From NCBI GenBank assembly GCA_937991645.1, contig CALKPL010000037.1:9168-73167 (forward strand): a stretch of DNA of 64,000 bases. The letters run 5' to 3'. How positions within the stretch are numbered: the stretch's first letter is position 1; each line of letters opens with the position of its first letter. Position numbers and translations under genes: made by a program. Below are positions 42,142-61,306 of this stretch, piece by piece. The DNA is from an uncultured Clostridia bacterium. GTDB taxonomy: Bacteria; Bacillota; Clostridia; Oscillospirales; UMGS1783. The notes below the pieces were generated by a model. The model searched no databases. It was not told the DNA's origin and saw nothing but the letters and a program-made list of their open reading frames with translations.

Positions 42142-43677
42142 TTATTCCTCCGGCGGGTCAAAATCTTCATCCGTGCATTTGCGGATAATATGCTTAGTGC
42201 GGTCAAGCGGCAGAGGCACGTCCTCCTCTGCGAAATACTCCACCTTCACTACCGCTGCTGCGGAGTGGTGGTTATCCTTGCCCACGGGTACAATCACATA
42301 ATCGCCAACGGAAATATCGTCCTCATCGGCAATGTAATAATAACTTTTGTAGCCTTCGTCAAATTCCACGCTACAGTAGATATAATCGGTTCTGCGGCGC
42401 TTGACCTTCTCATAGACCGCAGGATTGAGTATTTCCCCCATTCCGTAGAAACGCATAAACTGCCATACGGATTCAGCAAAATCGCTCCAGAGCTCCGGAA
42501 GAGCCTTCTTGTCATATGTTCCTTGGATGACACGCTGCGGTCCTTTCTTGAAGTCCACTGTGATCGTGTAATCTATGGTTTCAAGCGGATTGTCTACCGC
42601 ATCATCCGGGTTGCCCTCAATCTCGCCAAACAGGTCATCGGCATCAATATCATTGAGCAGGCCTTCAACGCCACCCTGGACATAGTATTTTCTGGACACA
42701 GCACAACCGCTGCCGATGTTCTGAATATGCTCCAAGGTCTCACTTTTACGGTCAAGCACCAATCTCTCGGTGTAGTCCCAAGTCACATATTCAACGGTTT
42801 CGGAGATCGGCTGCTTCGGCTTCATTTTGGTAATGCGGTGATAATCGATGGTGACGCGGTCAACTCTGTCTGGCTTGTTATTGCCGTCAAACACATAAAG
42901 GTCATCCATTTCGACTGCTTCTCGCACCATATCCGACAGGTCAACGCCATCCACTTCAAAATCAGCAATCAACGAGCCACGGTACTTATAAATATCTCCC
43001 TCGGTGTTGGTGATCTCCATCTCCCATTCACCGATATCGGTAGCAAAAACCTCAATGTACTCAGTGCTGAAATATCGTGCTATGCTGTTCAGCACTTTTG
43101 TGGCGCTTTCCTTTTCAATTTTATAAATTTTGCTCCTGGACTTTTCATGTCCATCAAAGCCAGAGCCAAAGTTGTATGCTGAGAACCATATGCGCCCATC
43201 GGCGTTGATGGTGATATGCTGTTCAACCTCGTCATCTGGTTCAGGCGGTGGGCCATAGCAGATATTATTGGAAACGATGCGCACCTTCTGCGGAGTGCCT
43301 TTAAACCGCTTCATGTGACATTCTGCTAATTCGCCCAGGCGGGATAGAGCCATCGTAAACCACGCACGGTTCTTCAGCTCCAAAATTTCCTCACCAGAAT
43401 ATGCCCAATGATTGAAATACCGCCATCGGGAGTAAATAGCCGATCCGAGCAAAGGAATATCAGTTATCTCCCCGATGATGCGTTCCAGTGCCTCAAAATC
43501 GTTTGCAGCTTTGCCGTACTTCTCAGAAAAGGCATGACCGCAGTCCATTACGAACCCAAGTGCCTCACAGTCATCAGCCATATAATGGTCTACCAGTTCA
43601 ATGTAGGTGGTTTTCTTATTTCTGAATTTGTCATACCACTTGACTGCAAATTCGTGGATTTGCTTCATGTCCGCCAC
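42142..43677 (-). CDS. 511-aa hypothetical protein, no recognisable domain
   Basis: Long ORF whose codon usage matches its neighbours. GTG start 7 nt after GGGAGGTG. No Walker, HEXXH or nuclease motifs and no TM helices were seen by eye. Confidence 0.7.
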   Translation of the reverse strand: MADMKQIHEFAVKWYDKFRNKKTTYIELVDHYMADDCEALGFVMDCGHAFSEKYGKAANDFEALERIIGEITDIPLLGSAIYSRWRYFNHWAYSGEEILELKNRAWFTMALSRLGELAECHMKRFKGTPQKVRIVSNNICYGPPPEPDDEVEQHITINADGRIWFSAYNFGSGFDGHEKSRSKIYKIEKESATKVLNSIARYFSTEYIEVFATDIGEWEMEITNTEGDIYKYRGSLIADFEVDGVDLSDMVREAVEMDDLYVFDGNNKPDRVDRVTIDYHRITKMKPKQPISETVEYVTWDYTERLVLDRKSETLEHIQNIGSGCAVSRKYYVQGGVEGLLNDIDADDLFGEIEGNPDDAVDNPLETIDYTITVDFKKGPQRVIQGTYDKKALPELWSDFAESVWQFMRFYGMGEILNPAVYEKVKRRRTDYIYCSVEFDEGYKSYYYIADEDDISVGDYVIVPVGKDNHHSAAAVVKVEYFAEEDVPLPLDRTKHIIRKCTDEDFDPPEE

Positions 43678-43720: not shown

Positions 43721-45034
43721 TTAACAGAATGCGCTCATAAACTCTTGTTCCGAAACTTTCATCATTGAGACAAATCCAGCATAATCAGTAGCGTCCATGG
43801 GTATTTTCAATCCGTGCTTGGTTATGCTGATATCTTCCCGTGGGATAACATTCGCCTCATAGGTAGAGCCGCGATTCATTCGCAATCTCAGACCCTCGGA
43901 GTTTTCTGCTTCGGGATAGAGATAATAACCCGTTTGAGCATCGAAGCGGAACATATAGGCAAGTACCTGCAGATAGTCCCGGTTGCCGATATTATCGATT
44001 GGTTTATATTTTGCATCAGCAATCACTCGCTTTTCGCTGTTACGGCTGATGAAATCAGGGTAAATAAGACCCACATTTCCTTCGAAGAGTCTCTGTGCGC
44101 CTTTTCCGCCTTTATTCATTGGGTGGTAGAACACGTCATCAATGAGAGAATTGATGTACTCCTCCCAAAGCCATGCACCGTCAAACAGGATGCCGTATAT
44201 TTGTCTTGTTCCTGTACCGATTTGGTGCTTTTGGTGCCGCAGAATAAGCAGGCACAGTCTCTGCAATGCATGGTACTCTCGGTAATACGCATGGCGGACG
44301 GTATTCTTTTTGTTCTGTTCAATGATTTTCTGCCTGTTATACGGCTCATATCCCGGAGTCGCATCTATAACGAGTTTTACCTCGTCTTTCACTTTGGTAA
44401 GAAGTTTATTTCCGTAAGGCTTTCTTTTGATAAACTCTATGGTATGCCGCACCAGCTCCATCAGACTATTATCGTAGGAAAACTCTCTCTGGCTGTATGC
44501 AACATTTCCTACAAATGGGGTATTCTCCTCGATATGTCTTGCGACATCAATCGTGCCTTTTACATTTCCATCATTGTACCTACGGCGGATATATTTTTTG
44601 AACAACCCCTTCCGCATAGCTGCCTTGAGGTAATACGGAAACAGAAACAGCAGAAAATTGAACAGCCGATTGTCTTGATTGGCATCGGAGTTCAAATCTA
44701 CGATGTTTGGAAAGTCCAGGACTTTATCTAAAAGATACTGGAAAAAGTAATCCTCACCCTCTCCGCAAAAACGGGACGCGATCACAAGCCGCTCATCACC
44801 ATAGCCGAGAAAACCCATCACATTGCCAGAACGAAAGGTGTCATTGATGCTTTGGAGGATCATCTGATCTTGGGTAATATCCTCTGCATCTTTTACGGTT
44901 TCTGGAAATACGAATACACCTTCACGCTCAAGCTGTTCCAACGTTTTATCTGCAATTTTACCTGCCAGCTTCGCTACTTGAGAAAAGGCATCTTTTTTCT
45001 GTTGGGAGTTATCCTTGATCCTGAGTAGCTTCAT
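43721..45034 (-). CDS. mcrC: McrC-like type IV restriction endonuclease subunit
   Basis: PD-(D/E)xK signature LIYPDFISRNSEKRVIADAKYK. Immediately downstream of mcrB and overlapping it. Start is ambiguous (45034, 45040 or 45079). Confidence 0.85.
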   Translation of the reverse strand: MKLLRIKDNSQQKKDAFSQVAKLAGKIADKTLEQLEREGVFVFPETVKDAEDITQDQMILQSINDTFRSGNVMGFLGYGDERLVIASRFCGEGEDYFFQYLLDKVLDFPNIVDLNSDANQDNRLFNFLLFLFPYYLKAAMRKGLFKKYIRRRYNDGNVKGTIDVARHIEENTPFVGNVAYSQREFSYDNSLMELVRHTIEFIKRKPYGNKLLTKVKDEVKLVIDATPGYEPYNRQKIIEQNKKNTVRHAYYREYHALQRLCLLILRHQKHQIGTGTRQIYGILFDGAWLWEEYINSLIDDVFYHPMNKGGKGAQRLFEGNVGLIYPDFISRNSEKRVIADAKYKPIDNIGNRDYLQVLAYMFRFDAQTGYYLYPEAENSEGLRLRMNRGSTYEANVIPREDISITKHGLKIPMDATDYAGFVSMMKVSEQEFMSAFC

Positions 45035-47105
45035 GTACATCACCTCTGGACTGTCGCTGATAGCCATATGCCTTTGCAAACCGTTTCATAATCCCTTCCT
45101 CATCGTACATACCCTGAATGTATTCCTGGAGGAGCGGTTGCAGATAATCCGTCCAAAGCTGGTCAAAGTCCAGTGTTTTCAGCTTCAGGAAGTAAGAAGC
45201 ACCGATTTGATAATTCTCATTCAAATCCTCAACGGCAGCAATTTCCTTGTTAAGGGCAGCCATTCTTCTGATTGCTTCAGCCTCCAACTCCTCGTTTTCC
45301 AGCAAGGCCAGCATCTCAAGGCGTTCGTCTGCCCGAAGCTCCACAAAGCGGAAACGACGGCGCATAGCAAAATCGAAGCTATCCACAGAACGGTCAATAT
45401 CATTCATCGTGCCGATGATATAGACGTTTTCGGGAATGTAGAACTTTTCATCCGGGTTGGGGTGCAGATTGGAATACTGCGTAGATATCTCACCGGATCT
45501 TCCACGATAACCAGGGTCGATGGCAAAGAACAGTTCACCGAAGATTTTAGATATTTCACCACGGTTAATCTCATCGATGATGAAAATGAATTTTTTCAAT
45601 TCGGTCTGTTTTGCATGAATCTTGGAACCGGTAGCTTTTCTCGCCTTGATGGCTTTGTAGATAGCGAAGTCGTAGGAGTATGCCTGCGTTGCGAAGGACT
45701 TTCCGAAGAAGGACGTGATGTCCTTGATTTTCTCGAACCGAAGACCGGACTCCAACATTCTCCGAACCTCATCAAGATTTAGTGCGAGTTTGTTAACCGT
45801 TGCATTGCCAGGGATAGAGATATTAATGTGGCTGTCATCTACGCTTACGATGGTAAATTCATTGCCATTGATGGTTTTGAAGGAATCAACGCCCAATTCC
45901 AGGCTGGCGAAAAATTCTGCCATTGCTTCCTGAACTGAGAGTTCCTTTTCGACCGTTTCTTTGGATTTCTGTGAATCCTCGTAGTTCTTTCTGGCGCGAG
46001 TAACAAACTTTTTGAAAATGCCGTCCTGCAGTTCAAAACCCATAGTACCGTCATCGTTGACCCTCGGTCTCAAACCTTCAACAAAATCAGAGTAATCGTA
46101 GCTCGGATGGAACTGGACGAATTCCACCTGTCTCTTCTGCTCATCTGTCAGCAGGGTGTAATCGTCAAAATATCCGTTGCTGATAATATCCGCAGCGATT
46201 TCCTTTGCAAGGTAAGACTTGCCAGTACCCGGAGCGCCTCTGAAGATCAGATTTTTAGATTCAATCAGCATAGAGGAGAACGGATTCCTGTATCCTTTGA
46301 ACTGCTGAACCAATTCCTCTTGGGCAGCGGCTTCTGCCTCCTCGACAACAGTTTCTTTTTCATCTTTTTCTCGGTATGTCAGTACAAACTGGTCTCCCGG
46401 TTCACCGAACCGCTTCAAGCATTCCTGAACGAAACTAATTGTGGAGAAGATATTCCAACAGTAAATGACGAACTGACGGCCGTTGTCATAACCGTAGGTC
46501 ATGTATTCTATGGTCTTGCGGTGCTTTTTGTATTCATCGACACTTGCAAAGATGCCGCAAATCATCTCACTGTCCGGGTTGTATTTGCATACAGGAAAAC
46601 TCTCCTTATCCTCAACAGACAAAGATGCAATCTGCTTTTCAAAAACCTGGCAGGCGATGCGAGGCAGGGTCTGATTGGAATTTCTTCTCTCACCCTTGCT
46701 GTAGGCGCGCTTGATCACCTCGCCAGTTGCCTTTTTGAAGGAGACATCAAGGGGCTTATAGTTGTCACCTAGGCTGATATTATCCATCGTGAACCGCTCG
46801 TCTGTAGATACCACACTTTCGGCGGTGATGGACAGTTCGAACTTTTCCTGCTGCTTTGTCTCAATAGTAAAGCCCTGGCCTTCCAGAAAGCTTTTTGCTT
46901 CTACGGCATTAAAGCCGTCCGTAGAAATATTTGTTCCGTTTGCCAAATAGTCAGCAACAGCCACTACATATTTCGGTGGATACCGCTTTCCGTCATCGGT
47001 TACAAGTTCGTATTTTGTGCTTTGATTATGAAAAGGGACACCATTCTCATCGATGTATTTTAAGGCATCCATGACGTATTCCTTTTTGAATTTTGGTATA
47101 GCCAT
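45009..47105 (-). CDS. mcrB: McrB-like AAA+ GTPase with about 290 aa of N-terminal putative DNA-recognition region
   Basis: Walker A FRGAPGTGKSYLAKEIA, Walker B FIFIIDEINRGEISKIFGELF, and the McrB signature IIGTMNDIDRS. The N-terminus contains GKRYPPKYVVAVA. Confidence 0.9.
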   Translation of the reverse strand: MAIPKFKKEYVMDALKYIDENGVPFHNQSTKYELVTDDGKRYPPKYVVAVADYLANGTNISTDGFNAVEAKSFLEGQGFTIETKQQEKFELSITAESVVSTDERFTMDNISLGDNYKPLDVSFKKATGEVIKRAYSKGERRNSNQTLPRIACQVFEKQIASLSVEDKESFPVCKYNPDSEMICGIFASVDEYKKHRKTIEYMTYGYDNGRQFVIYCWNIFSTISFVQECLKRFGEPGDQFVLTYREKDEKETVVEEAEAAAQEELVQQFKGYRNPFSSMLIESKNLIFRGAPGTGKSYLAKEIAADIISNGYFDDYTLLTDEQKRQVEFVQFHPSYDYSDFVEGLRPRVNDDGTMGFELQDGIFKKFVTRARKNYEDSQKSKETVEKELSVQEAMAEFFASLELGVDSFKTINGNEFTIVSVDDSHINISIPGNATVNKLALNLDEVRRMLESGLRFEKIKDITSFFGKSFATQAYSYDFAIYKAIKARKATGSKIHAKQTELKKFIFIIDEINRGEISKIFGELFFAIDPGYRGRSGEISTQYSNLHPNPDEKFYIPENVYIIGTMNDIDRSVDSFDFAMRRRFRFVELRADERLEMLALLENEELEAEAIRRMAALNKEIAAVEDLNENYQIGASYFLKLKTLDFDQLWTDYLQPLLQEYIQGMYDEEGIMKRFAKAYGYQRQSRGDVHEATQDQG

Positions 47106-47132: not shown

Positions 47133-48635
47133 TTACAGCCTTTGCTTTGTGCCGAGAGGGGGAACGCCAATCTCGGTTAAAAACGCATTGCAGGTTTCAA
47201 TGTCCTGCTGATAAAAACCTGTGAACAGGTACTTATAAGCCTCTTGTTCTTTGTCGCCATCAACAAAGGTCATTCCACCGAGCCTCAACACCTCTTGCAT
47301 CTCTTGTAGATCCAATCCCAAACCAACTCCCATTGCTATCAGCGGGCGCATCGTAAATTTGTGCGTTTCGCCCTGTACGCGGGAGAAGTTCATTTTGTCC
47401 AACCCCGTTTTGCTTTCAAATGTATACTCGTACCAGTTCTCTTCGGCCATGCGTTTTTTCATCCATGCTGCGGGAGTAGTAGCAGTGGCCTGTGCGCGCT
47501 TTAGTTTTTTCTCAAAATCCTTCGCCTTATTGAATAGTTCCGTATTCTGCGTATTCGCATCATAGGCGGATTCTGTGTTAAAAACACTATCAGATCGGAA
47601 CATCATTTGAGAGGCTCCGTGCATCAAGCTGTCAGGAATCAGCTTGATAGAGAAATCAAGTGTACATTCAGCAAGATGCTCTTTTGCATAAGGCGTCATT
47701 GATTTGACGCCATTTCCAGCATCAAACAAATAACGGTCATCATTCAGAACGAAATATCCCTCGGAAAAGCAGAATACGCCTGTATCTAATGTCGCACGTA
47801 ACAAATCATTTTCACGATACAGCTTAAACGCATCGAGCGGTGAAATGGGGCGTTGATGCCGTTTCGCTTGCGTCGCCTTACGATGCTGAATTTGACTCGC
47901 AGGAGCGTTGGATTCACCCGCACAATATGCCTCAGCTTCACCATATCCCAATTCATACATTCGTATGGCAGCTGACTGTCGGGACACTTCAAAAAAATCT
48001 GCTACATTGTCGATTACATATTCAGTTACGATGCTACGGTCTGCGTTTGGATTATCTGCAAGAAGCACCTGGTAAATATGGTCGACCTTTTTCTTGAATG
48101 CGGTTCGTGGCATGAGTATTTTGGGTGCAATTGTTTTTGCCTGCCACTCCATTTTATCAATATCAGACCACTGTCCACCGATCAAGCTCCCGGTAGTTGA
48201 AATTCCTCTGTTACAGCGGAATGCAAACTCTGTCCCATTTTCATGGTTTCGCTTGTAATTAAAGTAATTCCGATGCCGCCACCAATGGAAGCATTCATGA
48301 GCCAAAGTATTATTGAACCGTCCGATATTCATGATATCTGCATCAACGAAAATCGAAGGTTGTGACACCTCATATCCGATGGTTTCTTCGGCAGACCAGT
48401 CATACACTTCAATGATGCCCTTCGTAAATGCGATGGCACCTTGAACACTACCATCGAATGACAAATACTCCGTATCAATGATTTCCAGAGACATAAGCCT
48501 TGTGGCAATATCCCGGATCGGTATGGGTCTGGGATTGTCTATGGCATCAGCGCATTCGTATTTTGTCAGAAATGCCTCGGCTTCTTTTTCATAATCAGCC
48601 ACATAATGCATAAATGGGTTTGCAGCCTTTGCCAT
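47133..48635 (-). CDS. ImmA/IrrE-type (Peptidase_M78/DUF955) zinc metallopeptidase with a long uncharacterised C-terminal region
   Basis: HEXXH motif in NNTLAHECFHWWRH. About 350 further residues end in an Xre-HTH-like segment (RPLIAMGVGLGLDLQEMQEVLRLGGMTF). ATG 48635 follows AGGAGG, 18 nt after the hsdR stop. Confidence 0.75.
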   Translation of the reverse strand: MAKAANPFMHYVADYEKEAEAFLTKYECADAIDNPRPIPIRDIATRLMSLEIIDTEYLSFDGSVQGAIAFTKGIIEVYDWSAEETIGYEVSQPSIFVDADIMNIGRFNNTLAHECFHWWRHRNYFNYKRNHENGTEFAFRCNRGISTTGSLIGGQWSDIDKMEWQAKTIAPKILMPRTAFKKKVDHIYQVLLADNPNADRSIVTEYVIDNVADFFEVSRQSAAIRMYELGYGEAEAYCAGESNAPASQIQHRKATQAKRHQRPISPLDAFKLYRENDLLRATLDTGVFCFSEGYFVLNDDRYLFDAGNGVKSMTPYAKEHLAECTLDFSIKLIPDSLMHGASQMMFRSDSVFNTESAYDANTQNTELFNKAKDFEKKLKRAQATATTPAAWMKKRMAEENWYEYTFESKTGLDKMNFSRVQGETHKFTMRPLIAMGVGLGLDLQEMQEVLRLGGMTFVDGDKEQEAYKYLFTGFYQQDIETCNAFLTEIGVPPLGTKQRL

Positions 48636-48653
48636 AGACAGCCTCCTAACCAA

Positions 48654-51650
48654 TTAGTCTGTTTGCGTTCCTTCGCGCAGGATTCGATAGATTTCTGTCA
48701 TAAAGACATTTGCAAATTTCGCACGAATTTCCTCGTTATTGAGGAGTAGCGTATAGAAATCCGCATTCTGGTCATAACCTTCAACCAATGCGTCCTGGAC
48801 ACAGTCGTCATAGGTGAACTTGAACTCGTTGAGGGTGTTGTTTTTTGCACTCTTTTCAAGACGCTCTTTGAGTGCAGCGTTCTTCAAAAGTAGGTCACGA
48901 ATCTGCATGGCGGCTTTCGTAGTGAAATCCGGCTCGTAGTCCTTATCGTACAGGGCGTTAACCTCATCGATAATCTGGGAGAGGAGCTTTTTCTGTTCCT
49001 CCTCAAGACTTGCAGGCTTCGGTTTCTTGATTTTCACTTCAGGCTTGGCTTCGATTTCCTCGCCCTGGTGCTTTTCCAGCTGCTTCTGTCTGAAATCGCT
49101 GACGGTAATTTTATCAGCAATATCAAAGTTGTTTCCACCACCACCGGGGTTCAATTCCTTAATCAAATAAGAAAGGAAATTGTATCGCTTATGGAATTCG
49201 AGGTTTTCATAGGCGGTAGCCTGGATAAGGAAACAATAGCCTTTCAGGAATCGGCGGATGGTAATCTTGATCTCCATCTGCTCCAATTCGGGGCGTTTGG
49301 TAATTTTCTTCAAAGCCCCATCCAATAACGACCACATACGCTGCTTGTCCCGTGCTGTGCGGTTATCCTTGTAGAGGTATGTATTGAATTCATCAACATC
49401 GTCCGCATCAAGGAAGTCATACGCATCAATTTCACGATCCATGTCACGAATATCGGACGGAGAAATTGTTTCAAAAAGGATGGTGTCTTTGTAATACGGC
49501 TCAAATGCCGCTTTGATATCATCGTAGCTGTTTTTAAAGTCCAACACAAAGGTAGTCTTATCGTAAGGCGGACAAATTCTGTTCAGTCGAGAGAGGGTCT
49601 GGACGGCCTGAACTCCACGCAGGCGCTTGTCCACATACATTGCCACCAGTCTCGGCTGGTCAAAGCCAGTCTGATACTTATCTGCAACGATAAGCACTTG
49701 ATAACAACTGCGGTCAAACTCGTAACGCAGGTCTTCCTCTTTGAAACCGTTCATGCCGGTTTCAGTGTATTCCTTGTCGTCCAGTTTGACCTTGCCAGAG
49801 AATGCCACCAGAGCCTGAATGCCCGTATAGCCACGCGCCTGAATATACCGTTCAAATTCCTGGCGGTATTTTACAGCAGCCGGGCGAGAAGAAGTGATAA
49901 CCATAGCCTTTGCCTTACCACCAAGGCACCCGGCCACATTTGCTCTGAAATGCTCAATGATGATTTCGACCTTCTGTGCGATGTTGGTATCATGCAGGTC
50001 GATAAAGCGAGCCATCTTACGCTTTGCGGCGATAGACTGGAGTTCCGGGTCATCCTGGATTGCCTTATTGATATGGCAGTAAGTTTTCCAGGTCACATAG
50101 TTGTCCAAAACATTAAGGATATAGCCCTCCTCAATGGCTTGCTTCATAGAATACAGATCGAAGGATTCCTTCTTACCTTCAGCGTTCAGAGTGCCGAAAA
50201 GCTGAAGGGTATCCGGCTTCGGTGTAGCAGTAAAGGCAATCATAGAAACATTGCTCTGCTTGCCACTCTTCTGGATTTCCTCAAGCATCTTGTCTTCTTC
50301 AGTCTTTTCCTCCTCGTCCTCCTCATTGGCGAGGACATTGGTTACGGACTGCATATAGACACCCTCAGTAGAAGAATGTGCCTCGTCAATCAGTACAGCA
50401 AACTTCTTGCCCTTAAGGTTTCCGAGCAGATTGTTGTTGAGAATGTAATAGAATTTATGAATGGTGGTAACAACGATCTTAGTGTTGCCGCCGAGTGCGA
50501 TAGCCAGGTCCTCGGAATCGCACCTATCATCCATAACCTTGACCTGTCCGCTTTTGTGCTCGATGCCGAGAATGGCCTCTTGCAGCTGACGGTCAACAAT
50601 GATACGGTCAGTGATAATCAGCACCGTATCAAAAATATTTTCATTGGCGGCATCGTGAACCGTCGCGAGAATGTGAGCAAGCCAGGAAATGGTTTCGGTC
50701 TTGCCGCTGCCCGCAGAATGTTCAATAAGGTAATTGCAGGAGGTGTGGTTCTCGATAACATCGTTCATAACCCGCTCAACAGCACGAAGCTGATGGAAAC
50801 GTGGGAAAATGAGCACCTTGGACTTTTTGATTTTGCCGGTATCAGCATCCTTGCGCTCTTTCTTTTTGATATAGATGAAACGCTCGATGAGGAACAGGAT
50901 TTTATCCTTCGTCCAGATGTTCTCCCACATATAGGAGACGTTCACGCCGTTCTGATTGTGGGGATTTCCCTTGCCGAAGTTTTCACCAATGTTGAACGGA
51001 TTGAAGAAGGTATCGGGGCCCTTCAGTTCCGTGGTGAAATACACTTCATTCAGGTCCATGGCAAACGCAGCAAATACGCCAACCCTGCTCTTGAAAAGGC
51101 GGGTGGAAGGATCGCGCTCATTCTTGTACTGCTTAATGGCGTCCTCGTAGCTTTGACCGGAGGTGTTGCATTTCAGTTCAACTGTGAAGATAGCCAAGCC
51201 ATTCAGAAAAATAACGAGGTCAATGCGTTCGTCAGCCTTGTGATATACCTCTTCCATTACGGAGAAGATATTTTTTCGGTAGTTCGCAACAGCCTGGGTG
51301 TTGATGGTGCTGTCCGGCTTGCGATACATCAGCCGAAGGGTAACACCATTATCGAACTCTACGCCGTGCTTGATAACATCGATCAGGCCACGGCTTTCCT
51401 TGTTGATTTCCGAGTTGATGTAATTAATGACCGTATCGTTGGTGCGGTCTTTATACATACGGCGCAGACGCTCCATTTCATCGTGCTGCGTATCCTCCAG
51501 AAACTCAAGCAGGACTTCGGTATCCATTGCCAACCCAGGCTTATAGGCTGTGTTGGGACGGATACGGAATTTGTTATCCTCTTCCAAACGCTCCAGAATC
51601 AACTTTTGGAAATCTTCTTTTTCTCTCAGCTGGTCTGCTCTGATAGGCAT
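48654..51650 (-). CDS. hsdR: type I restriction enzyme R subunit
   Basis: 998 aa. Helicase motif I HSAGSGKTETISW, motif II VLIDEAHSS, and later motifs VAFSGK and QTGFDQP. Confidence 0.95.
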   Translation of the reverse strand: MPIRADQLREKEDFQKLILERLEEDNKFRIRPNTAYKPGLAMDTEVLLEFLEDTQHDEMERLRRMYKDRTNDTVINYINSEINKESRGLIDVIKHGVEFDNGVTLRLMYRKPDSTINTQAVANYRKNIFSVMEEVYHKADERIDLVIFLNGLAIFTVELKCNTSGQSYEDAIKQYKNERDPSTRLFKSRVGVFAAFAMDLNEVYFTTELKGPDTFFNPFNIGENFGKGNPHNQNGVNVSYMWENIWTKDKILFLIERFIYIKKKERKDADTGKIKKSKVLIFPRFHQLRAVERVMNDVIENHTSCNYLIEHSAGSGKTETISWLAHILATVHDAANENIFDTVLIITDRIIVDRQLQEAILGIEHKSGQVKVMDDRCDSEDLAIALGGNTKIVVTTIHKFYYILNNNLLGNLKGKKFAVLIDEAHSSTEGVYMQSVTNVLANEEDEEEKTEEDKMLEEIQKSGKQSNVSMIAFTATPKPDTLQLFGTLNAEGKKESFDLYSMKQAIEEGYILNVLDNYVTWKTYCHINKAIQDDPELQSIAAKRKMARFIDLHDTNIAQKVEIIIEHFRANVAGCLGGKAKAMVITSSRPAAVKYRQEFERYIQARGYTGIQALVAFSGKVKLDDKEYTETGMNGFKEEDLRYEFDRSCYQVLIVADKYQTGFDQPRLVAMYVDKRLRGVQAVQTLSRLNRICPPYDKTTFVLDFKNSYDDIKAAFEPYYKDTILFETISPSDIRDMDREIDAYDFLDADDVDEFNTYLYKDNRTARDKQRMWSLLDGALKKITKRPELEQMEIKITIRRFLKGYCFLIQATAYENLEFHKRYNFLSYLIKELNPGGGGNNFDIADKITVSDFRQKQLEKHQGEEIEAKPEVKIKKPKPASLEEEQKKLLSQIIDEVNALYDKDYEPDFTTKAAMQIRDLLLKNAALKERLEKSAKNNTLNEFKFTYDDCVQDALVEGYDQNADFYTLLLNNEEIRAKFANVFMTEIYRILREGTQTD

Positions 51651-51651
51651 A

Positions 51652-52983
51652 TTACCGAACCTCCTTTACTCGTTTTTTGCCTGTGACATACTCAAATATT
51701 ACGGCAGCCATATGATTTTGCATGGTAAGCAGCTGACGCTCCTTTTCCGCAATAGTTGCATCAATAAGTGCCGTTTTATAGTCCAGCTCTGCTACTATAG
51801 CATCTTGCTCTTCTAACGGAGGAACAGAGATATTCTGTTTCTTCAAAATGCTGAACGGAGGGATATTTTTTATAGCACTACCGTTGCTATATTTTTCATT
51901 CATATATTCCAGTGCAACATCGAATAAGTAAATAAAATAAGATTTATTGAACCCATCTTTTATTCTTACCCTCATCAATGCCTGATTGATAATACCCGGC
52001 TCAATGTTGTCTGGTAGAACATAACACTTACCAATAGTGCCTGCGCAACTCACTATTATGTCGCCAGGAGCAACAGAAAAGTCCTTAAGTCCTCTATAAT
52101 CTTCGTAGGATAGATAATACCACCCCAGCGAAGCATCGCCCTGAATTGCATTCTTTTGCTCATAGACCTTAAAGGTGTTTTCACCCTTTTCTATAAACAT
52201 ATCGACAGTTACAGCACTTCCAAAGGGACCTTTTTTGTAAGTTGCGATATCCTGCATACGAAGGATTTCCCAATGTTCGGGAGTCGCTCCGCACCACTCT
52301 ATATGGCTATTCTTTTTCTGCACATCGGGGTTCAAACCGTGTGTAACAACTTCTGAAATATAAGTTTTTTTATATTTTTTCAGCAATGCAAGTTGTGCTT
52401 CCAGTTCAGTGATGATAGCCTGCAACTTTCCGCAATGAACATCCAAATAGTCTGCAATGGCTTCCTGTTCGGCATAATCTGGAAACGCATACAAAAATTC
52501 CGCAAAATCTCCTTGGTACAGATGCACAATTGTACTGTTGCCAGCATTTTTGTAGTTAAACCAGTTCCAAAACTCATCGGATTTAATCACCCAATAGAGA
52601 AACCGCTGGCTATATCCTTCGATAGGTACAATACGAAGAACGCCGCTATTAAGTGATGTTTCACCCGGCATATTCGTTACAATAGCAACCTTACCAATAG
52701 TACCGTCTTTGGTAATCAACAGATCGCCTTCCTGAATTTGAATATCCGTAGCTTCTTCCCAACGCTTCATAGGAACATGAACACAATTTTCCCAATCAAT
52801 ACCACCGTCAGCAAAATCAACTCCGGTGATAAGATATGCGCCCTCGTCCTGGTACTCTTCGGATGTCAATCCTTGCCATCCAATGCGTCCCTTCAACGTT
52901 GCCATATATTTAATTCGCTTGGTGTTCCAGGCAGTTGGAATTTCTCCAATCCACTGGATGCCAGTCTGTCTCATCTCTTCCAT
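51652..52983 (-). CDS. hsdS: type I R-M specificity subunit
   Basis: 443 aa with two target-recognition domains separated by coiled-coil conserved regions (LEAQLALLKKYKKTYISEV ... EKERQLLTMQNHMAAVIFEYVTG). Confidence 0.9.
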   Translation of the reverse strand: MEEMRQTGIQWIGEIPTAWNTKRIKYMATLKGRIGWQGLTSEEYQDEGAYLITGVDFADGGIDWENCVHVPMKRWEEATDIQIQEGDLLITKDGTIGKVAIVTNMPGETSLNSGVLRIVPIEGYSQRFLYWVIKSDEFWNWFNYKNAGNSTIVHLYQGDFAEFLYAFPDYAEQEAIADYLDVHCGKLQAIITELEAQLALLKKYKKTYISEVVTHGLNPDVQKKNSHIEWCGATPEHWEILRMQDIATYKKGPFGSAVTVDMFIEKGENTFKVYEQKNAIQGDASLGWYYLSYEDYRGLKDFSVAPGDIIVSCAGTIGKCYVLPDNIEPGIINQALMRVRIKDGFNKSYFIYLFDVALEYMNEKYSNGSAIKNIPPFSILKKQNISVPPLEEQDAIVAELDYKTALIDATIAEKERQLLTMQNHMAAVIFEYVTGKKRVKEVR

Positions 52984-55145
52984 TATTCTGCCCCTTTCTG
53001 CAAGGCAGCAATTTTTGCAGTAAGCGAAGACTCCAATTCCATGAATTGCGCCAGCAGATCATCAGCCTTTTCGGGCTCATGGTACACATAGAAATACCTG
53101 GTGAACGGGAATTCCGCACCCAATTTCTCTTTATTGGTAGCACTCTCCGCTTTGCTTTCGTCAAAGTCATAGAAGTAAATCGCATCCGGAATATGCGGAT
53201 ACACTTCAGCATCCATATAAGCCTTCTCGTCCTGATTGAGGCGAATAATTTCCGTGTCTTTTGTTGTCGGGTCGATAATCACACGGCCTTTTCTGTCCTT
53301 CTGGACAACAGCGGTCTTGTCAATAAACGACAGTTCCATGGCAATGCCGTTGAGACGAGAATCCGACATACCCTCAATACCTGCGAGAGCCTTTTTCAGT
53401 ACTGCTACGAATTTGGAAAAATCATCGTATTCCTTGTCAGACTCCTGCGCCTTCAACGCCTCAATTACAGCAGCAGTAAAGGTGCGACCCTTAATCTGCT
53501 TCTGATATGCCTTTTCGTCAGTAGCGTCACGAGGATCGGTCTGCTCCAATTCCTCAAATTTAGCTTCATTGAAAATGTTGGTATTGGCGGTGAAATAAGC
53601 GCTGGTACGAAGTGCCTCAATAGAAGCCGCATTGATAACACCACGGCGCTGTAAGGGCTGGTACACAGACCACTCCTTATACAGGAATTCCTCTCGGTCA
53701 AAAATCTTGCTCTCAATAACGCATTCGTGCTTGCGCTTTTCGCACCACTGAGTCTTTCTACCAGGTGCAAAATCCGCATAGATCTCAGTGATAAGGGTAA
53801 TCTGCTCCTTGGAGATTTCTCTACGCTTTTTGCCAAGAGAACGCTTCAGAGGAGTCCACATATCGGTTGCATCGATAAGCTGAACCTTGCCCTTGCGTTC
53901 TTTACGCTTGCCCTTGGACAAAATGAACGCATAGATTGCAATATCGGTATTGTAGAACAACTGAGAAGGCAGACCGATAATGGCTTCTATAAGATCATTC
54001 TCAAGCAGGTATCTTCTAATCTGGCTTTCACCACTTGTGGTATTGCCGGAAAACAGAGGAGAACCATTTGTGATAATAGCAGCTCTACCAACGCCTTTCT
54101 GCATTTTTGCAACGGCGTGCTGCATAAACAGCAATTGCATATCACCGGTTGTAGGCAATCCCGCCGGGAACCTGCCATTATTGCCTTTCTTGTATTCTTT
54201 GCGCACCGCTTTTTCAACACCATCGCCGGCATCTTTGCCGCCCCAAGCCTCACCAAAAGGTGGGTTGGCAATGACAAAACGCATGGAGGTATCTTCAAAG
54301 CAGTCCTCCTTCATGGTGTCAGCAAAGCGGATGTTTTCTGCAGTCTGGTTCTTAATCAGCATATCCGCAAGGCAGATAGCATGGGATTCAGGGCTGTTCT
54401 CCTGTCCGAACAGGCGCACATTGGCGTCCGGGTTCATACGCACGATGAAATCGTGTGCGGTAGAAAGCATACCGCCAGTACCGCAGGCCATGTCCAATAC
54501 GGTGATTTCTCTGCCTTCGGAGAAAATATCACTGCAACCTTCAGCAAGCAGAATGCTGGTGAGGAGGCGGATAACTTCACGAGGGGTGTAGTGATCGCCC
54601 GCAGACGCATTTTCAGAAAAGCGGCGGATGATTTCCTCGAACATATAGCCCATCTTGACATTATCGACTTTTTCGGGGTCGAGTTCGAGTTCAGAGAACT
54701 TTTTGACAACACCCAACAGTCGGTTATTTTTGTCGAGATTTTTGATTTCTTCCTTAAACTTCAGTTCTTCAAAAATTGCTTGGACATTCGGAGAGAAGGA
54801 CTCAATGTAAAAAGTCAGATTCTCTACGATGGCAGGTGCTTCGGTAAGCAGTTTCTTCAAATCAAATTCACAGGTATTGTAGAACTGATAGCCAGATTTT
54901 TTGCACAGCAACTGTGCAGGAGCCGCGGGGTTCTTCTTGAATGCGTCAACCACAGCCTTCTTTTTAGGCGCAAGAGCACACTCCAACCGGCGCAGGATAA
55001 TCATGGGAATGATGACATCCTTGTACTTGTCCGGCTTATAAGGACCACGCAGCGTATTTGCAATGGAGAATACCATGGCGATTTCTTTGGACGCATCTAT
55101 CGTTTTGTCGTCCATCATTACTTCGGTGATTTTTGTCTGTGCCAT
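52983..55145 (-). CDS. hsdM: type I R-M N6-adenine DNA methyltransferase subunit (long form, 720 aa)
   Basis: HsdM N-domain, SAM motif LDMACGTGGML and catalytic motif FVIANPPFG. About 230 aa of C-terminal extension. Confidence 0.95.
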   Translation of the reverse strand: MAQTKITEVMMDDKTIDASKEIAMVFSIANTLRGPYKPDKYKDVIIPMIILRRLECALAPKKKAVVDAFKKNPAAPAQLLCKKSGYQFYNTCEFDLKKLLTEAPAIVENLTFYIESFSPNVQAIFEELKFKEEIKNLDKNNRLLGVVKKFSELELDPEKVDNVKMGYMFEEIIRRFSENASAGDHYTPREVIRLLTSILLAEGCSDIFSEGREITVLDMACGTGGMLSTAHDFIVRMNPDANVRLFGQENSPESHAICLADMLIKNQTAENIRFADTMKEDCFEDTSMRFVIANPPFGEAWGGKDAGDGVEKAVRKEYKKGNNGRFPAGLPTTGDMQLLFMQHAVAKMQKGVGRAAIITNGSPLFSGNTTSGESQIRRYLLENDLIEAIIGLPSQLFYNTDIAIYAFILSKGKRKERKGKVQLIDATDMWTPLKRSLGKKRREISKEQITLITEIYADFAPGRKTQWCEKRKHECVIESKIFDREEFLYKEWSVYQPLQRRGVINAASIEALRTSAYFTANTNIFNEAKFEELEQTDPRDATDEKAYQKQIKGRTFTAAVIEALKAQESDKEYDDFSKFVAVLKKALAGIEGMSDSRLNGIAMELSFIDKTAVVQKDRKGRVIIDPTTKDTEIIRLNQDEKAYMDAEVYPHIPDAIYFYDFDESKAESATNKEKLGAEFPFTRYFYVYHEPEKADDLLAQFMELESSLTAKIAALQKGAE

Positions 55146-55162: not shown

Positions 55163-55372
55163 TTAATATTCATTCAGGTCGATACCGGCCTTCAGCAAAC
55201 GCTCATAGCGGTCATTGGAAATGATAACCGCCATAGGCTTACCGTTTTTCAAGACAAAACCAGCCTTATCTTCGGTAGATATTGTCGTTATAATCTTTGA
55301 TGCCTGCCCACGCAGGAAGTCTGACATATTATAATGCTCCATCGGAGTGATACTTTTCTTTACCTCAGCCAT
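55163..55372 (-). CDS. Phd/YefM-like antitoxin-fold protein, first gene of the operon, no toxin partner
   Basis: 69 aa: MSDFLRGQASKIITTIS...GFVLKNGKPMAVIISNDRYERL, matching the Phd/YefM N-terminal pattern. hsdM starts 17 nt downstream. Confidence 0.6.
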   Translation of the reverse strand: MAEVKKSITPMEHYNMSDFLRGQASKIITTISTEDKAGFVLKNGKPMAVIISNDRYERLLKAGIDLNEY

Positions 55373-55404: not shown

Positions 55405-55433
55405 ATCATAGCACAAAGTAATTACTTTTTCAA
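55405..55433 (-). promoter_or_regulatory. near-consensus sigma-A promoter of the defence operon
   Basis: Minus strand: TTGAAA (55433-55428), 17-nt spacer, extended -10 TGCTATGAT (-10 hexamer at 55410-55405). Confidence 0.6.
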
Positions 55434-55495
55434 TGACTTTTGTGTAACTTTTTGTTTGTACAATTCAGGCTACCTCAACAAACACAAAAAAGTTA

Positions 55496-55512
55496 GTAAC
55501 TCACCGAGTTAC
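55496..55512. promoter_or_regulatory. perfect 7-3-7 palindrome GTAACTC-ACC-GAGTTAC
   Basis: Read directly from the sequence. Other GTAAC(T) copies lie at about 55445, 55604 and 55662. Confidence 0.4.
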
Positions 55513-55538
55513 GATTAGAGGCACATATTAACCTTCAT

Positions 55539-55594
55539 CCCTGTCCACAGCCTTTCCAAAACATCGGAAAGGTACTGTTGGCAGGGATTTTTTG
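55539..55594 (+). terminator. compound hairpin with T-tract, no upstream plus-strand gene
   Basis: CCCTG...CCTTTCC-AAAACATC-GGAAAGG...CAGGG followed by ATTTTTTG. Confidence 0.5.
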
Positions 55595-55802
55595 CTTATT
55601 CACTGTAACTCGCCAAGATTCGGGTTTTCAGACATTGTTAGATATAATTTTGGTATCGAAGGTAACTCCTTCGAAATAAATTTTACTCCGCTTTGTGAGT
55701 GGCCATTAACGAAGCGGTGGATACATACGGAACCCGGGACGGATTCTCCGTCAGCCATCCGATGTACCACCGTTGATTCGTCATGCCTTCTCACGAGCGT
55801 CG

Positions 55803-55878: not shown

Positions 55879-56388
55879 ATGCAAAAGAATGACAATCAGC
55901 ACTACATCTATCTGCGTTCCACCCGTGAGCGCATCCCCTGCACAGAGCAGGAGTTCCACGATTATTACCGCGACATTGATGCCTTCCGCAAAAAGCAACA
56001 GCGCCACGGGCGCTGCGTGTGTCCCGTCGCCAAGCGACTGGACTGTGACATGGACTGCGTGACTTGCCCCTTCAGCAGAGCCGGAGACTCCCTCTCCTTG
56101 GATTACACCGCTACAAACGACGAGGGTGAAGAAAGACCCTGGCTTGACGATATACCAGATGCATTCGCAGAGGTCGATGTGAAAGTTGAGGAAGCTGAGA
56201 TGCTCGATGCGCTGCATCTTCTTCTATCAACCCTCGCACCGGAGGAACTGGAAATTTGTAAAACCATCATGGTCGATCTTTCCGAGCGTGCTGCTGCCGC
56301 ATCACTAAACATCTCCCGAAAGGCCTTTACGTGCCGCAGAGATAAGGTTTTGAATCATTTGAAAAATTCTCTAAAAAATTATCTCTGA
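55879..56388 (+). CDS. sigma-70 region-4-like HTH protein with an N-terminal Cys cluster (phage/ICE early regulator type)
   Basis: 169 aa. CVCPVAKRLDCDMDCVTCPF, then LLLSTLAPEELEICKTIMVDLSERAAAASLNISRKAFTCRRDKVLNHLK. Confidence 0.6.
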   Translation: MQKNDNQHYIYLRSTRERIPCTEQEFHDYYRDIDAFRKKQQRHGRCVCPVAKRLDCDMDCVTCPFSRAGDSLSLDYTATNDEGEERPWLDDIPDAFAEVDVKVEEAEMLDALHLLLSTLAPEELEICKTIMVDLSERAAAASLNISRKAFTCRRDKVLNHLKNSLKNYL

Positions 56389-56471
56389 TTTGGGGGCCAA
56401 ACGGCAATCCCGTGTCCGGTGGCAAGTGTAAGAGGCAAAACGATACCGCCGATTATGGGAGGTGACAAAGA

Positions 56472-56681
56472 ATGTACGAGTCCGAAAACAAGGCGATGAA
56501 CCCTGACGAGGAACTGGTTGATATCCTTCTGGAGTTTATCATCGTCGCAGCAAACCTGGCAAAAAGCATCAACCGCTCACTCAAGCAGAAGCAAATCAAG
56601 GAAGGAGGCAACGTCAATGGGCAGAATCAGCGAATTGGATATGGCGATCAAAGACCTGCGCAGCGCCGCAGCCACTATTAA
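56472..56681 (+). CDS. 69-aa hypothetical protein
   Basis: ATG follows a GGGAGGTG RBS. Overlaps the next gene by 65 nt, so the call is uncertain. Confidence 0.35.
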   Translation: MYESENKAMNPDEELVDILLEFIIVAANLAKSINRSLKQKQIKEGGNVNGQNQRIGYGDQRPAQRRSHY

Positions 56682-56934
56682 TGAAGTGGCAAACACCCTG
56701 GCAGAGATGTTCAGCACCACGGCTGATGAAGCCCCTGACACTGCCGCCCCTGCCGATCCTGCGCTGACGCTGGAACAGGTCAGAGCCGTTCTTGCGGACA
56801 AGTCCCGCAAGGGGTACACCGCTGAGATCCGCACGCTGCTCCAGAAGTACGGTGCGGCAAAGCTGTCCGGCATCGACCCCGTCCACTACAAGGCGCTGCT
56901 TGCCGATGCGGAGGTGCTGACCGATGCCACCTAA
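56617..56934 (+). CDS. 105-aa hypothetical phage protein
   Basis: ATG 56617 follows GAAGGAGG. MGRISELDMAIKDLRSAAATINEV...TLEQVRAVLADKSRKGYTAEIRTLLQKYG. Confidence 0.6.
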   Translation: MGRISELDMAIKDLRSAAATINEVANTLAEMFSTTADEAPDTAAPADPALTLEQVRAVLADKSRKGYTAEIRTLLQKYGAAKLSGIDPVHYKALLADAEVLTDAT

Positions 56935-58054
56935 AGGACACGCTATTCTCTCGGCATCGTCTTCCGAGCGGTGGCTCAACTGCCCGCCCTCCGCAAGGCT
57001 GTGTGAAGCCTACGAGGATAAAGGCAGCGACTACGCCGCCGAGGGCAGCGATTGCCATGCTCTATGCGAGTTCCGGCTCAAGCAGGCACTTGGTATTCCG
57101 GCTGAAAGCCCCATCGAAAATCTCTCTTGGTACAACGAGGAGATGGAGGAATGTGCCGCCGGATACGCTACCTATGTGACGGAGCTTCTGACAGCCGCAA
57201 AGCAAACCTGCTCCGACCCTGTGGTCATGATCGAACAGCGGGTGGATTTCTCTCACTGGGTGCAGGACGGTTTCGGAACAGCCGACTGCATTCTCATTGC
57301 CGACGGTACGCTCAATATCTGCGATTACAAGCATGGCAAAGGGGTCGAGGTCAGCGCAGAGTGGAACCCGCAAATGATGCTCTATGCCCTGGGTGCCTTG
57401 GAGATTTTCGACGGCATCTACGATATTGACACCGTCCGCATGACCATCTATCAGCCCCGGAAGTCGAATATCAGCATCTTCGAGATGTCCAAGGACGCTC
57501 TGCTCGAATGGGCAGACACGGAACTGACGCAGAAAGCACAGCTTGCCTACGAGGGACAGGGCAACTTCTCCTGCGGCGAGTGGTGCCGCTTCTGCAAGGC
57601 GAAAGCCGAGTGCAGAGAACGCGCAGAAACCAATCTCGCTCTTGCACGGTACGACTTTGAGAAACCAGCGCTCCTTGACGACGATGAGATTGCCGACATT
57701 CTCGGAAAGGTCGATGCATTGACCGCTTGGGCAGCCGATGTGAAGGAATATGCCCTTCAGCAGGCTGTCAGCGGCAAGGAATGGAGCGGGTGGAAACTGG
57801 TCGAAGGCCGTTCCAACCGCAAGTACACCAGTGAAGCCTTTGTTGCCGCCGCTGTTGAAAGCGCAGGCTTTGACCCCTATGAGCGCAAGGTGCTCGGCAT
57901 CACCGCCATGCAGAAACTGCTCGGCAAATCCCGCTTTGATGAGCTTCTCGCTCCCTACATTAAAAAGCCGCAAGGCAAACCCACGCTCGTGCCGGAGAGC
58001 GATAAACGTCCGGCAATGAACACCGCAAAATCAGATTTTATGGAGGAATTTTAA
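56924..58054 (+). CDS. DUF2800-type PD-(D/E)XK (Cas4/RecB-like) nuclease
   Basis: 376 aa. HAILSASSSERWLNCPPSARL, ICDYKHGKG, and a C-terminal Cys cluster CGEWCRFCKAKAEC. Confidence 0.8.
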   Translation: MPPKGHAILSASSSERWLNCPPSARLCEAYEDKGSDYAAEGSDCHALCEFRLKQALGIPAESPIENLSWYNEEMEECAAGYATYVTELLTAAKQTCSDPVVMIEQRVDFSHWVQDGFGTADCILIADGTLNICDYKHGKGVEVSAEWNPQMMLYALGALEIFDGIYDIDTVRMTIYQPRKSNISIFEMSKDALLEWADTELTQKAQLAYEGQGNFSCGEWCRFCKAKAECRERAETNLALARYDFEKPALLDDDEIADILGKVDALTAWAADVKEYALQQAVSGKEWSGWKLVEGRSNRKYTSEAFVAAAVESAGFDPYERKVLGITAMQKLLGKSRFDELLAPYIKKPQGKPTLVPESDKRPAMNTAKSDFMEEF

Positions 58055-58055
58055 T

Positions 58056-58631
58056 ATGTCTACCAACACAAACAGAGTCAACAATCCCATGAAGGTCATC
58101 ACCGGTCCCGACACCCGTTGGTCTTACGCCAATGTCTGGGAGCCTAAGAGCATCAACGGCGGCACTCCCAAGTACAGTGTCAGCCTCATCATCCCCAAGT
58201 CCGATACTAAGACGGTCGCAAAGATCAAGGCGGCAATCGAAGCTGCCTATCAGGAAGGACAGGCTAAGCTGAAGGGCAATGGAAAGATCGTACCGCCCCT
58301 CGCAGCCATCAAGACCCCGCTCCGCGACGGCGACATTGAGCGCCCTGACGATCCGGCTTATGCCAATGCCTACTTCATCAATGCCAACTCCGCTACCGCG
58401 CCCGGTATCGTGGACGCTGACCGCAACCCTGTGCTGACTCGCTCTGAGGTTTACTCCGGCGTGTACGGCCGTGCAAGCATCAACCTGTATGCTTTCAACA
58501 GCAACGGCAACAAGGGTATCGCCTGTGGTCTGAACAATCTGCAGCTTATCCGTGCCGGTGAACCCCTGGGCGGCAAGGCAAGTGCCGAGTCCGACTTTGC
58601 AACCGATGACGATGATGACTTTCTGGCTTAA
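58056..58631 (+). CDS. DUF2815-type phage ssDNA-binding protein
   Basis: 191 aa: VITGPDTRWSYANVWEPKSINGGTPKYSVSLIIPKSD. Acidic tail DDDDDFLA. Confidence 0.8.
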   Translation: MSTNTNRVNNPMKVITGPDTRWSYANVWEPKSINGGTPKYSVSLIIPKSDTKTVAKIKAAIEAAYQEGQAKLKGNGKIVPPLAAIKTPLRDGDIERPDDPAYANAYFINANSATAPGIVDADRNPVLTRSEVYSGVYGRASINLYAFNSNGNKGIACGLNNLQLIRAGEPLGGKASAESDFATDDDDDFLA

Positions 58632-58645
58632 GGAGGTAACCGAAT

Positions 58646-58861
58646 ATGGAACTGACTACGATTCTTTGCATCCTGCTTCTCAGCCTGTATCTGTTGCTGG
58701 CGGTCTTTTGGATTGTCCGCTCGGTCATTGATGCCATCGATGACCATGAGCGCAAGAAAAGGGACGATGCCTGGGAAGCCGAAAAGCAGCAGCTTGAGAA
58801 AGAGCGTGCTATTCGTGAAGTGGAATACCACGAAGCCCGCATGAAAAATATGCACGAGTAA
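58646..58861 (+). CDS. 71-aa small membrane protein
   Basis: One TM helix (ILCILLLSLYLLLAVFWIV) followed by a charged helix. Confidence 0.5.
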   Translation: MELTTILCILLLSLYLLLAVFWIVRSVIDAIDDHERKKRDDAWEAEKQQLEKERAIREVEYHEARMKNMHE

Positions 58862-58929
58862 AACGCAATACCCCGTGGGCGGCGGAGCGATCTGCCGCCC
58901 TATTGGGGTAAGCGAAAGGACCGGTGAAT

Positions 58930-60870: not shown

Positions 60871-60883
60871 CGAGGTATAACCC

Positions 60884-61303: not shown

Positions 61304-61306
61304 ACC

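Follow-up and report, generated by a model that had tools for sequence, protein, structure and literature searches.

A fused M78 peptidase and helix-turn-helix protein encoded after hsdR in a Clostridia restriction operon: a possible protease-repressor switch

Several described regulatory systems combine an M78 zinc protease with an Xre-type helix-turn-helix (HTH) repressor. In ImmA/ImmR of ICEBs1 and Bacillus phages and in IrrE/DdrO of Deinococcus, the module lies in the control region of a mobile element, and DNA damage triggers cleavage of the repressor. CapP/CapH is a protease and HTH pair tied to defence: it regulates CBASS and other defence operons, and a fused CapH-CapP is associated with DISARM (Lau et al., bioRxiv 10.1101/2022.04.27.489752). 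Here we describe a protein of 500 amino acids (aa) that carries both an M78 peptidase domain and an Xre-type HTH. It is encoded within a restriction operon on a stretch of 64,000 nucleotides (nt) from an uncultured Clostridia bacterium (contig CALKPL010000037.1), which is called the window below. Tentatively, we read this protein as a protease-repressor switch in a single chain, comparable to ImmA-ImmR or CapP-CapH, whose gene is transcribed together with restriction cargo. The gene and the parts of its product are as follows.

47133-48635, minus strand: target gene, encoding the 500-aa M78/HTH protein (open reading frame (ORF) and translation; ATG at 48635, stop codon at 47133-47135)
47916-48635, minus strand: M78 (ImmA/IrrE/CapP-like) peptidase domain, residues 1-240 (Pfam, PADLOC and Foldseek)
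48285-48299, minus strand: HEXXH zinc-binding/catalytic motif, H113 E114 C F H117 (invariant in alignment A1)
48147-48149, minus strand: E163, within the motif MEWQAKTIAPKILMP (invariant in the alignment)
47655-47852, minus strand: conserved beta-rich middle domain, residues 262-327 (mean pairwise identity 0.56)
47520-47654, minus strand: predicted disordered linker, residues 328-372, containing the conserved motif QNTELFNKA (predicted local distance difference test score, pLDDT, below 50)
47136-47483, minus strand: Xre-type HTH (about residues 385-450) and helical C-terminal extension (profile, Pfam and Foldseek)

The preliminary description of this DNA had called the product an ImmA/IrrE-type metallopeptidase with an HEXXH core and an Xre-HTH-like C-terminus, and both assignments hold. 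Peptidase_M78 (Pfam PF06114) matches residues 92-226 with 28.4 bits against a gathering cut-off of 22 (E 1.5e-6). CapP is the best match in both sequence (PADLOC capP profile, 9.6e-11) and fold (PDB 7t5t). Foldseek returns CapP 7t5t with an E value of 7.6e-5 and IrrE 3dti with 1.6e-3, at a probability of 1.00, as well as PrpR of M. tuberculosis; the template modelling (TM) scores of the CapP and IrrE matches are modest (0.39-0.42 on the target). In the AlphaFold2 model the pLDDT of the peptidase domain is mostly 80-95, and lower at residues 51-90 and 134-160. The Peptidase_M78 call is not a chance match. The HEXXH motif lies within AHECFHWWRH, residues 112-121, and H113, E114, H117 and E163 are all invariant among 24 homologues with identities down to 47%. 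In the alignment of a longer, 630-aa form of the family (A4), H246 and E247 are invariant and H250 is found in at least 90% of the sequences. E163 is presumably the third zinc ligand, by its fit to the M78 motif E-x-x-A...LLMP.

The C-terminal HTH is seen with several methods. A profile of the last 130 residues matches HipB (9e-5), an immunity repressor and C.BclI (1e-3). HTH_3 or HTH_26 is reached unaided by seven of 20 family members (best 4.9e-7), and the relative L030 passes the HTH_26 cut-off (25.7 bits against 22). Foldseek places the HTH with C.Esp1396I, 434 Cro, DdrO and SinR at a TM of about 0.7 on the target. The HTH is followed, as in CapH, by a helical extension of about 50 aa, a putative oligomerisation domain. 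An HTH with a helical extension is the type of module that M78 proteases normally cleave (ImmR, DdrO, CapH). Profile and model matches thus support the assignment of the C-terminal part as a DdrO/CapH/ImmR-like repressor module. The resemblance to controller (C) proteins of restriction-modification (R-M) systems is in fold only (C.Esp1396I and C.AhdI, E 0.09-0.3). C proteins are small, stand-alone and encoded just upstream of the restriction gene, whereas the target has 500 aa, and no C-box operators were found at the target locus.

Between the two ends lie the middle domain, which is kept in every full-length clade and for which Foldseek gave no PDB fold match (model confidence there is only about 75), and the linker. 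Linker residues D349, Q363, N364 and N369 are invariant despite the predicted disorder, and the linker is a candidate cleavage or docking site. Neither the full protein nor the family profile has a PDB sequence match; solved structures were matched only by fold and by the C-terminal profile. Unlike ImmA/ImmR and IrrE/DdrO, the target combines both parts in a single chain that starts with the protease and ends with the HTH, it has a conserved middle domain (and, in the wider family, also an N-terminal domain), and it is co-transcribed with restriction genes. The domain order of the CapH-CapP fusion is opposite to that of the target.

The target belongs to a large phage-associated family. Residues 7-492 match positions 136-624 of the 626-position profile phrog_4031 (E 4.7e-69), and the target is without the first approximately 135 positions, which correspond to the N-terminal domain. 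The 210 homologues collected are mostly of about 500 aa. A first survey of gene context covered 162 loci from genomes, a phage database, IMG/VR and metagenomes. Note that its search patterns were drawn from the 500-aa clade and so made R-M linkage look more frequent than it is across the whole family. This bias was corrected by a profile search of 1.84 billion representatives and a second survey. At E<=1e-30, the profile search found 513 representative clusters (50% identity). The 150 best-scoring representatives are clearly dominated by the form of about 630 aa with the extra N-terminal domain, whose length and domain layout agree with phrog_4031. The second survey covers 69 loci of this form, 57 of them with an evaluable upstream neighbour.

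The 630-aa gene is usually located at the control region of a temperate element. In 50 of the 69 loci a replication module lies 3' of it on the same strand. A small divergent ORF is located upstream in 24 of the 57 evaluable loci, and six of seven such ORFs sampled encode Cro/C1-type HTH proteins (HTH_26 or HTH_3). In streptococcal phi-m46.1-like phages the gene next to the family gene encodes either a CI/S24 repressor or a small Xre protein. L203, the only 630-aa locus scanned for such signals, has a predicted divergent promoter of its own and two strong predicted terminators after the gene, indicating that the gene is monocistronic there. hsdR is directly upstream in only two of the 57 loci, and one small ORF away in a few more. 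The preliminary description had named, as evidence that would refute its restriction-linked proposal, a family found mainly in prophage immunity regions beside Xre repressors, and the wider family does behave in this way: the 630-aa form occupies the switch regions of phages and is transcribed away from a small Cro/C1 HTH gene.

The window shows the same surroundings. To the right of the restriction operon, a plus-strand replication module encodes DUF2800, an Enc34-type single-stranded DNA-binding protein (SSB), DNA polymerase A (PolA), DUF7768 and a D5-type primase; a DUF2800-SSB-PolA-primase module is typical of phi-m46.1-like temperate elements. Positions 55879-63583 (plus strand) hold the left part of such an element. 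One 169-aa protein of this element has a C-terminus that by eye resembles sigma-70 region 4, with no Pfam hit. The family is represented only once in the element, whose switch lacks a small Xre gene. At a related locus, L163 (12728-14086), the cassette abuts a tRNA/rRNA U5-methyltransferase-like gene (PF05958), resembling the rum integration site of phi-m46.1.

Restriction genes recur in one position relative to the family gene. Among ten same-strand upstream genes of the 630-aa form sampled with Pfam, six are restriction or modification genes, including McrC, RE_LlaJI, RE_Eco29kI and two methyltransferases; others are a helicase fragment and two genes that form a DUF5986 plus HTH-M78 pair resembling RosmerTA, and the non-defence exceptions are an FtsX permease and a transposase. 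In other loci of the second survey the slot also holds type I R-M and McrBC cassettes. The slot just 5' of the family gene is a hotspot for restriction cargo at the element's switch, and the synteny with hsdR may derive from it. Comparison of the loci indicates that phi-m46.1-like temperate elements are where the family arose, as a control gene standing alone at their genetic switch, and that restriction cargo has repeatedly been inserted just 5' of this gene, in its transcription unit. In the branch of the window, by the same comparison, the N-terminal domain was lost and the gene is now the fixed terminal core gene of a cassette. The order of this cassette is s69-hsdM-hsdS-hsdR-M78/HTH, followed by swappable type IV nucleases. 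In the window it is made up of the following genes and signals.

55163-55372, minus strand: s69, encoding a 69-aa small Phd/YefM-like protein, first gene of the operon
52983-55145, minus strand: hsdM (Pfam N6_Mtase, HsdM_N)
51652-52983, minus strand: hsdS (Pfam Methylase_S)
48654-51650, minus strand: hsdR, type I restriction subunit (HSDR_N, ResIII, SWI2_SNF2, T1R_D3; TIGR00348 1e-54)
48642-48647, minus strand: ribosome-binding site AGGAGG, 6 nt before the target ATG and within the gap after hsdR (sequence)
45009-47105, minus strand: mcrB-like gene, AAA_5 (NF008457 3.6e-39)
43721-45079, minus strand: mcrC (PF10117 3.5e-51)

hsdR lies directly 5' of the target in a common operon. Its stop codon (48654-48656) leaves an 18-nt gap to the target ATG, and the mcrB-like/mcrC pair (43721-47105, minus strand), which are type IV restriction genes, follows 27 nt past the target in the same operon. 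The coordinates, the gap and the AGGAGG site had been given correctly in the preliminary description, which did not state that the gene is on the minus strand.

In the reading that we favour, the HTH module would bind DNA within the control region that separates the restriction operon from the element's replication operon. A stress signal would activate the protease, which would cut a tethered or partner repressor, and this cleavage would switch transcription of the element and/or the restriction operon. The activating signal of known M78 proteases is DNA damage, single-stranded DNA or RecA. The cassette is probably read from one autoregulated promoter. In lambda, rexAB ride with cI, much as the restriction genes here lie in the target's transcription unit. 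Such cargo is useful only if expressed in the lysogen, suggesting that the target gene is lysogen-expressed too. It is reported that type I operons can be repressor-controlled and infection-induced, as with RptR (PMC12255303). Under the switch reading the target is a regulator and not a toxic effector.

Several observations weigh against this reading. The target is the last core gene, on the same strand and 18 nt after hsdR, at the 3' end of the operon, whereas regulators of the CapH/CapP type are upstream and divergent. CapP and IrrE have a GAF-type sensor domain, which in CapP binds single-stranded DNA; none was detected in the target by Pfam or Foldseek. No operator for the target HTH was identified, the sole conserved promoter palindrome, GTAATTAC, tracking s69 instead. 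The divergent neighbour in phi-m46.1 is a self-cleaving CI/S24 repressor, for which no antirepressor is needed. In the subclade L052-L060 the middle and HTH domains are lost and the peptidase is still found after hsdR, implying that the peptidase has a role independent of its own HTH. Finally, the near-perfect adjacency to hsdR in two type I families exceeds what a hotspot alone would obviously predict.

This adjacency is as follows. hsdR is immediately 5' of the family gene on the same strand in 126 of the 142 loci with enough upstream sequence, with a median gap of 14 nt. When the loci are grouped by similarity, the linkage is concentrated in two deep clades: the target's 500-aa clade, with such an hsdR in 94 of 98 loci, and a clade of about 850 aa, with one in all 30. 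The restriction linkage of the preliminary description therefore stands for these two clades and fails for the 630-aa form. The HsdR proteins of the window and of the 850-aa clade share only 21-23% identity, indicating that the clade is tied to a different type I family. The 850-aa proteins consist of a YgjP-like peptidase (PF01863, 1.7e-53) fused N-terminally to the N-domain, M78, middle domain and HTH. In L189-L193, hsdR is followed by two neighbouring but unfused genes, one YgjP-like (PF01863 1.7e-60 in L189) and the other M78/HTH. The fusion was considered as Rosetta-stone proof of a functional link with HsdR, but the 850-aa protein corresponds exactly to the 630-aa element gene joined to the last gene of the cargo. 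Adjacency alone could therefore have made it, which weakens the argument.

YgjP/SprT-like peptidases are coupled to hsdR elsewhere as well. Among 552 matching plasmid records, three unrelated plasmids were inspected, and in all three such a gene comes directly after hsdR, starting at or within 4 nt of the hsdR stop.

L196 8938-9651: YgjP/SprT-like gene, E. coli plasmid
L197 8881-9636: YgjP/SprT-like gene, K. pneumoniae plasmid
L198 8878-9624: YgjP/SprT-like gene, A. johnsonii plasmid

Each of the three plasmids has different defence genes between hsdS and hsdR, and the YgjP coupling is kept. A similar layout is found in the island RptR-hsdMS-DarTG-hsdR-M48 of enteropathogenic E. coli (EPEC; PMC12255303), which shares with the window a small DNA-binding gene, hsdM-hsdS-hsdR and a zinc metallopeptidase gene in last place. 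The small regulator of the window is the Phd/YefM-like s69, whereas that of the EPEC island is the four-helix RptR. The M78 domain of the target is of a different family from the EPEC peptidase and the hsdR-coupled YgjP/PF01863 peptidases, and PF01863 is absent from the target itself (SprT-like E 0.055 only), although relatives of the target are fused to or adjoin a YgjP-like peptidase. In the literature we found no paper describing this M78/HTH family or testing the function of any hsdR-adjacent peptidase.

An unlikely alternative to the switch is that the cassette encodes a protease acting on HsdR, perhaps also on the type IV nucleases, in restriction alleviation or in an antitoxin-like role. 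HsdR would be cleaved when unmodified sites, DNA damage or entry into a new host call for it, as by ClpXP in E. coli or Lon/AsrA in P. aeruginosa. HsdR proteolysis is a known route of restriction alleviation (PMC4231737; bioRxiv 10.1101/2024.10.21.619520), and DNA-damage signals act on M78 proteases. ImmA-domain antitoxins exist as well (RosmerTA, PMC10440598). The hsdR adjacency that spans two type I families, the self-toxic nucleases on both flanks of the target, the HTH-less forms that hold their place after hsdR, the family members adjoining or fused with a YgjP/SprT-like peptidase, and the plasmid-borne YgjP-like peptidases coupled to hsdR would all fit such a protease. However, known M78 proteases have no substrate other than HTH proteins, most of the wider family is without an adjacent hsdR, and the YgjP fusion could simply reflect that the last cargo gene lies next to the element gene. 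A broader form of the same proposal, which we consider doubtful, is that the M78 and the hsdR-coupled YgjP/SprT-like peptidases are cassette-encoded, DNA-tethered and damage-activated anti-autoimmunity proteases that clear HsdR and the neighbouring type IV nucleases from the host chromosome. If this were true, mobile type I systems would bring their own restriction alleviation, independent of ClpXP or Lon.

The preliminary description had put forward a comparison with PrrC: a second-line effector or sensor held by the R-M complex and freed when a phage blocks restriction. Such a protease would cleave a host target and abort infection. This reading found no specific support and is very improbable. 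PrrC and RloC are also accessory genes inside type I R-M loci, as the target is, and protease effectors and sensors occur in other defence systems. The target has no similarity to either, however: PrrC is an ATPase-nuclease effector and the target a protease with a repressor module, and no Pfam, NCBIfam or PADLOC hit to ABC-ATPase or anticodon-nuclease domains was obtained. The characterised M78 proteases all cleave HTH repressors, and an effector role would leave unexplained both the HTH module and the occurrence of the family at phage switches; no conserved partner gene of a toxicity type is seen. Within the 500-aa clade the target does diverge faster than HsdR and HsdM (47% identity where HsdR has 75-80%), as an effector might. 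Part of this extra divergence comes from recombination at the boundary of hsdR and the M78 gene, one pair having a dS (synonymous divergence) of 1.98 in the target and 0.79 in hsdR. The pairwise ratio of nonsynonymous to synonymous divergence (dN/dS) is low, 0.04-0.06 for the target (hsdR, about 0.02). The target thus evolves under purifying selection, and pairwise dN/dS gives no sign of positive selection. It is also improbable that the target is a counter-defence protease of the element, made with the cargo or early, which cleaves host restriction subunits, as ArdC might, or phage DNA-mimic anti-restriction proteins, with the HTH as a tether to DNA or a DNA-like ligand. Mobile phage-like elements carry the family as a core gene, and the anti-type-I protein ArdC has an IrrE/Spartan-like metalloprotease domain, but the anti-restriction effect of ArdC did not need protease activity (PMC7213743). 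Nothing at the locus specifically supports this role, and the monocistronic 630-aa gene of L203 with its own terminators is regulator-like. A stress-triggered regulatory switch is more likely than a restriction-guarding killer, and the operon regulator that the preliminary description had offered as its alternative is the better-supported half of what it proposed.

RmrA of RosmerTA, an HTH plus ImmA protease, is likewise located beside variable toxic partners in defence islands. Its HTH is at the other end, and the PADLOC RmrA match of the target is not significant (E 0.019, 11.8 bits). An RmrT-type toxin is absent beside the target, whose neighbours are HsdR and McrB. In L224 (2865-4829), and also in L227, L228 and L231, a DUF5986 gene is followed by a 403-aa HTH_3 plus Peptidase_M78 gene. 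This RosmerTA-like pair is directly 5' of the 630-aa M78/HTH gene, so that two different M78 proteins are encoded side by side.

Control of the operon itself may be assigned to s69. The protein scores 21.6 bits against PF02604, under the cut-off of 29.8, and has weak PDB matches to Phd and Rv2865. An s69 gene is found 5' of hsdM in all loci of the 500-aa clade whose upstream sequence was read directly (the ORF caller labelled 49 of 65), and its identity across the clade is 70-98%. s69 is probably the operon autorepressor. It is not a homologue of RptR, given the four-helix fold of RptR (PDB 9R2Z) and the Phd/YefM-like nature of s69. In the 850-aa clade a small HTH_17 gene occupies the equivalent position. 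The predicted control signals are the following.

55405-55433, minus strand: predicted operon promoter TTGAAA-17-TG-TATGAT (best promoter match in the region)
55415-55428, minus strand: palindrome AAAGTAATTACTTT in the promoter spacer (sequence)

The core GTAATTAC or a near-match is found just 5' of s69 in most of the distinct upstream regions read. It is also found in L194, in front of a LlaJI-type operon that starts with an s69 homologue and lacks an M78 gene, indicating that the putative operator goes with s69. The simplest reading, that this core is the operator of the target HTH, was rejected: it is present where the M78 gene is missing, and it stays constant while the HTH diverges. The combination of s69 and the spacer palindrome AAAGTAATTACTTT is clade-wide, and it also heads the L194 operon and a second type I family (L189-L193). 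The pair is probably a portable autorepressor-operator module for restriction operons. A second upstream palindrome reads TAACTYG-N3-CRAGTTA in most loci and TATATCTTTGAAAGATA in the subclade of 47% identity. Its type at first seemed to co-vary with the HTH; this operator reading was dropped because the T-run, the partner half-site and a compensatory central hairpin fit terminators or RNA structure equally well.

A conserved non-coding stretch of about 190 nt lies 5' of the operon promoter (window about 55440-55680, minus strand; also in L002, L071, L013, L140 and others). It consists, in order, of the half-site CGAATCTYGGNGAGTTAC, a long hairpin and the full palindrome GTAACTCGNNGAGTTAC with a T-run, and the hairpin arms change compensatorily between loci. 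One subclade has an identical layout with other sequence (ATCAATGAAAGATAT ... TATATCTTTGAAAGATA). Stacked terminators, an attenuator and a small RNA are all possible readings of the stretch, for which Rfam gave no matching family. In L014, a 180-aa ORF matching the M78 family is located on the opposite strand, 5' of and divergent from the s69-hsdMSR cassette, and may be the remnant of a second copy.

The gene that comes after the M78 gene varies, and it usually encodes a modification-dependent nuclease, i.e., a type IV restriction enzyme.

GIY-YIG/DUF4357 as downstream neighbour: 24 loci
Mrr or Mrr_N-McrB as downstream neighbour: 23 loci
McrBC as downstream neighbour: 9 loci
GmrSD-DUF4268 as downstream neighbour: 3 loci

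Examples of these interchangeable nucleases are located at 43721-47105 (minus strand) in the window and at L004 9499-10359, L005 6041-6958, L023 9461-13474 and L026 9486-12014. The type I plus type IV layout of the window is like that of the immigration control region of E. coli. After mcrC the window encodes one more protein.

42142-43677, minus strand: 511-aa protein, after mcrC

This protein has no match in Pfam, NCBIfam or PADLOC. Its homologues come straight after the 630-aa M78 gene in two McrBC-carrying phage contigs (L254 and L279), and it may be another member of the cluster.

As far as sequence can tell, what is new here is a fused M78-HTH protein of reversed order with two domains of unknown fold, which in this clade is locked into a type I plus type IV operon. 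The target would add such a member to the ImmA/ImmR and CapP/CapH class of damage-sensing switches, and the phrog_4031 family to which it belongs is large and unstudied, with at least 513 clusters at 50% identity. The findings bear on the role of the zinc peptidases that are encoded right after hsdR in many type I systems, and on whether mobile R-M cassettes can bring their own restriction-alleviation protease. Restriction cargo in the target's transcription unit would tie the expression of defence to the control circuit of phi-m46.1-like elements, which also spread macrolide and tetracycline resistance in streptococci.

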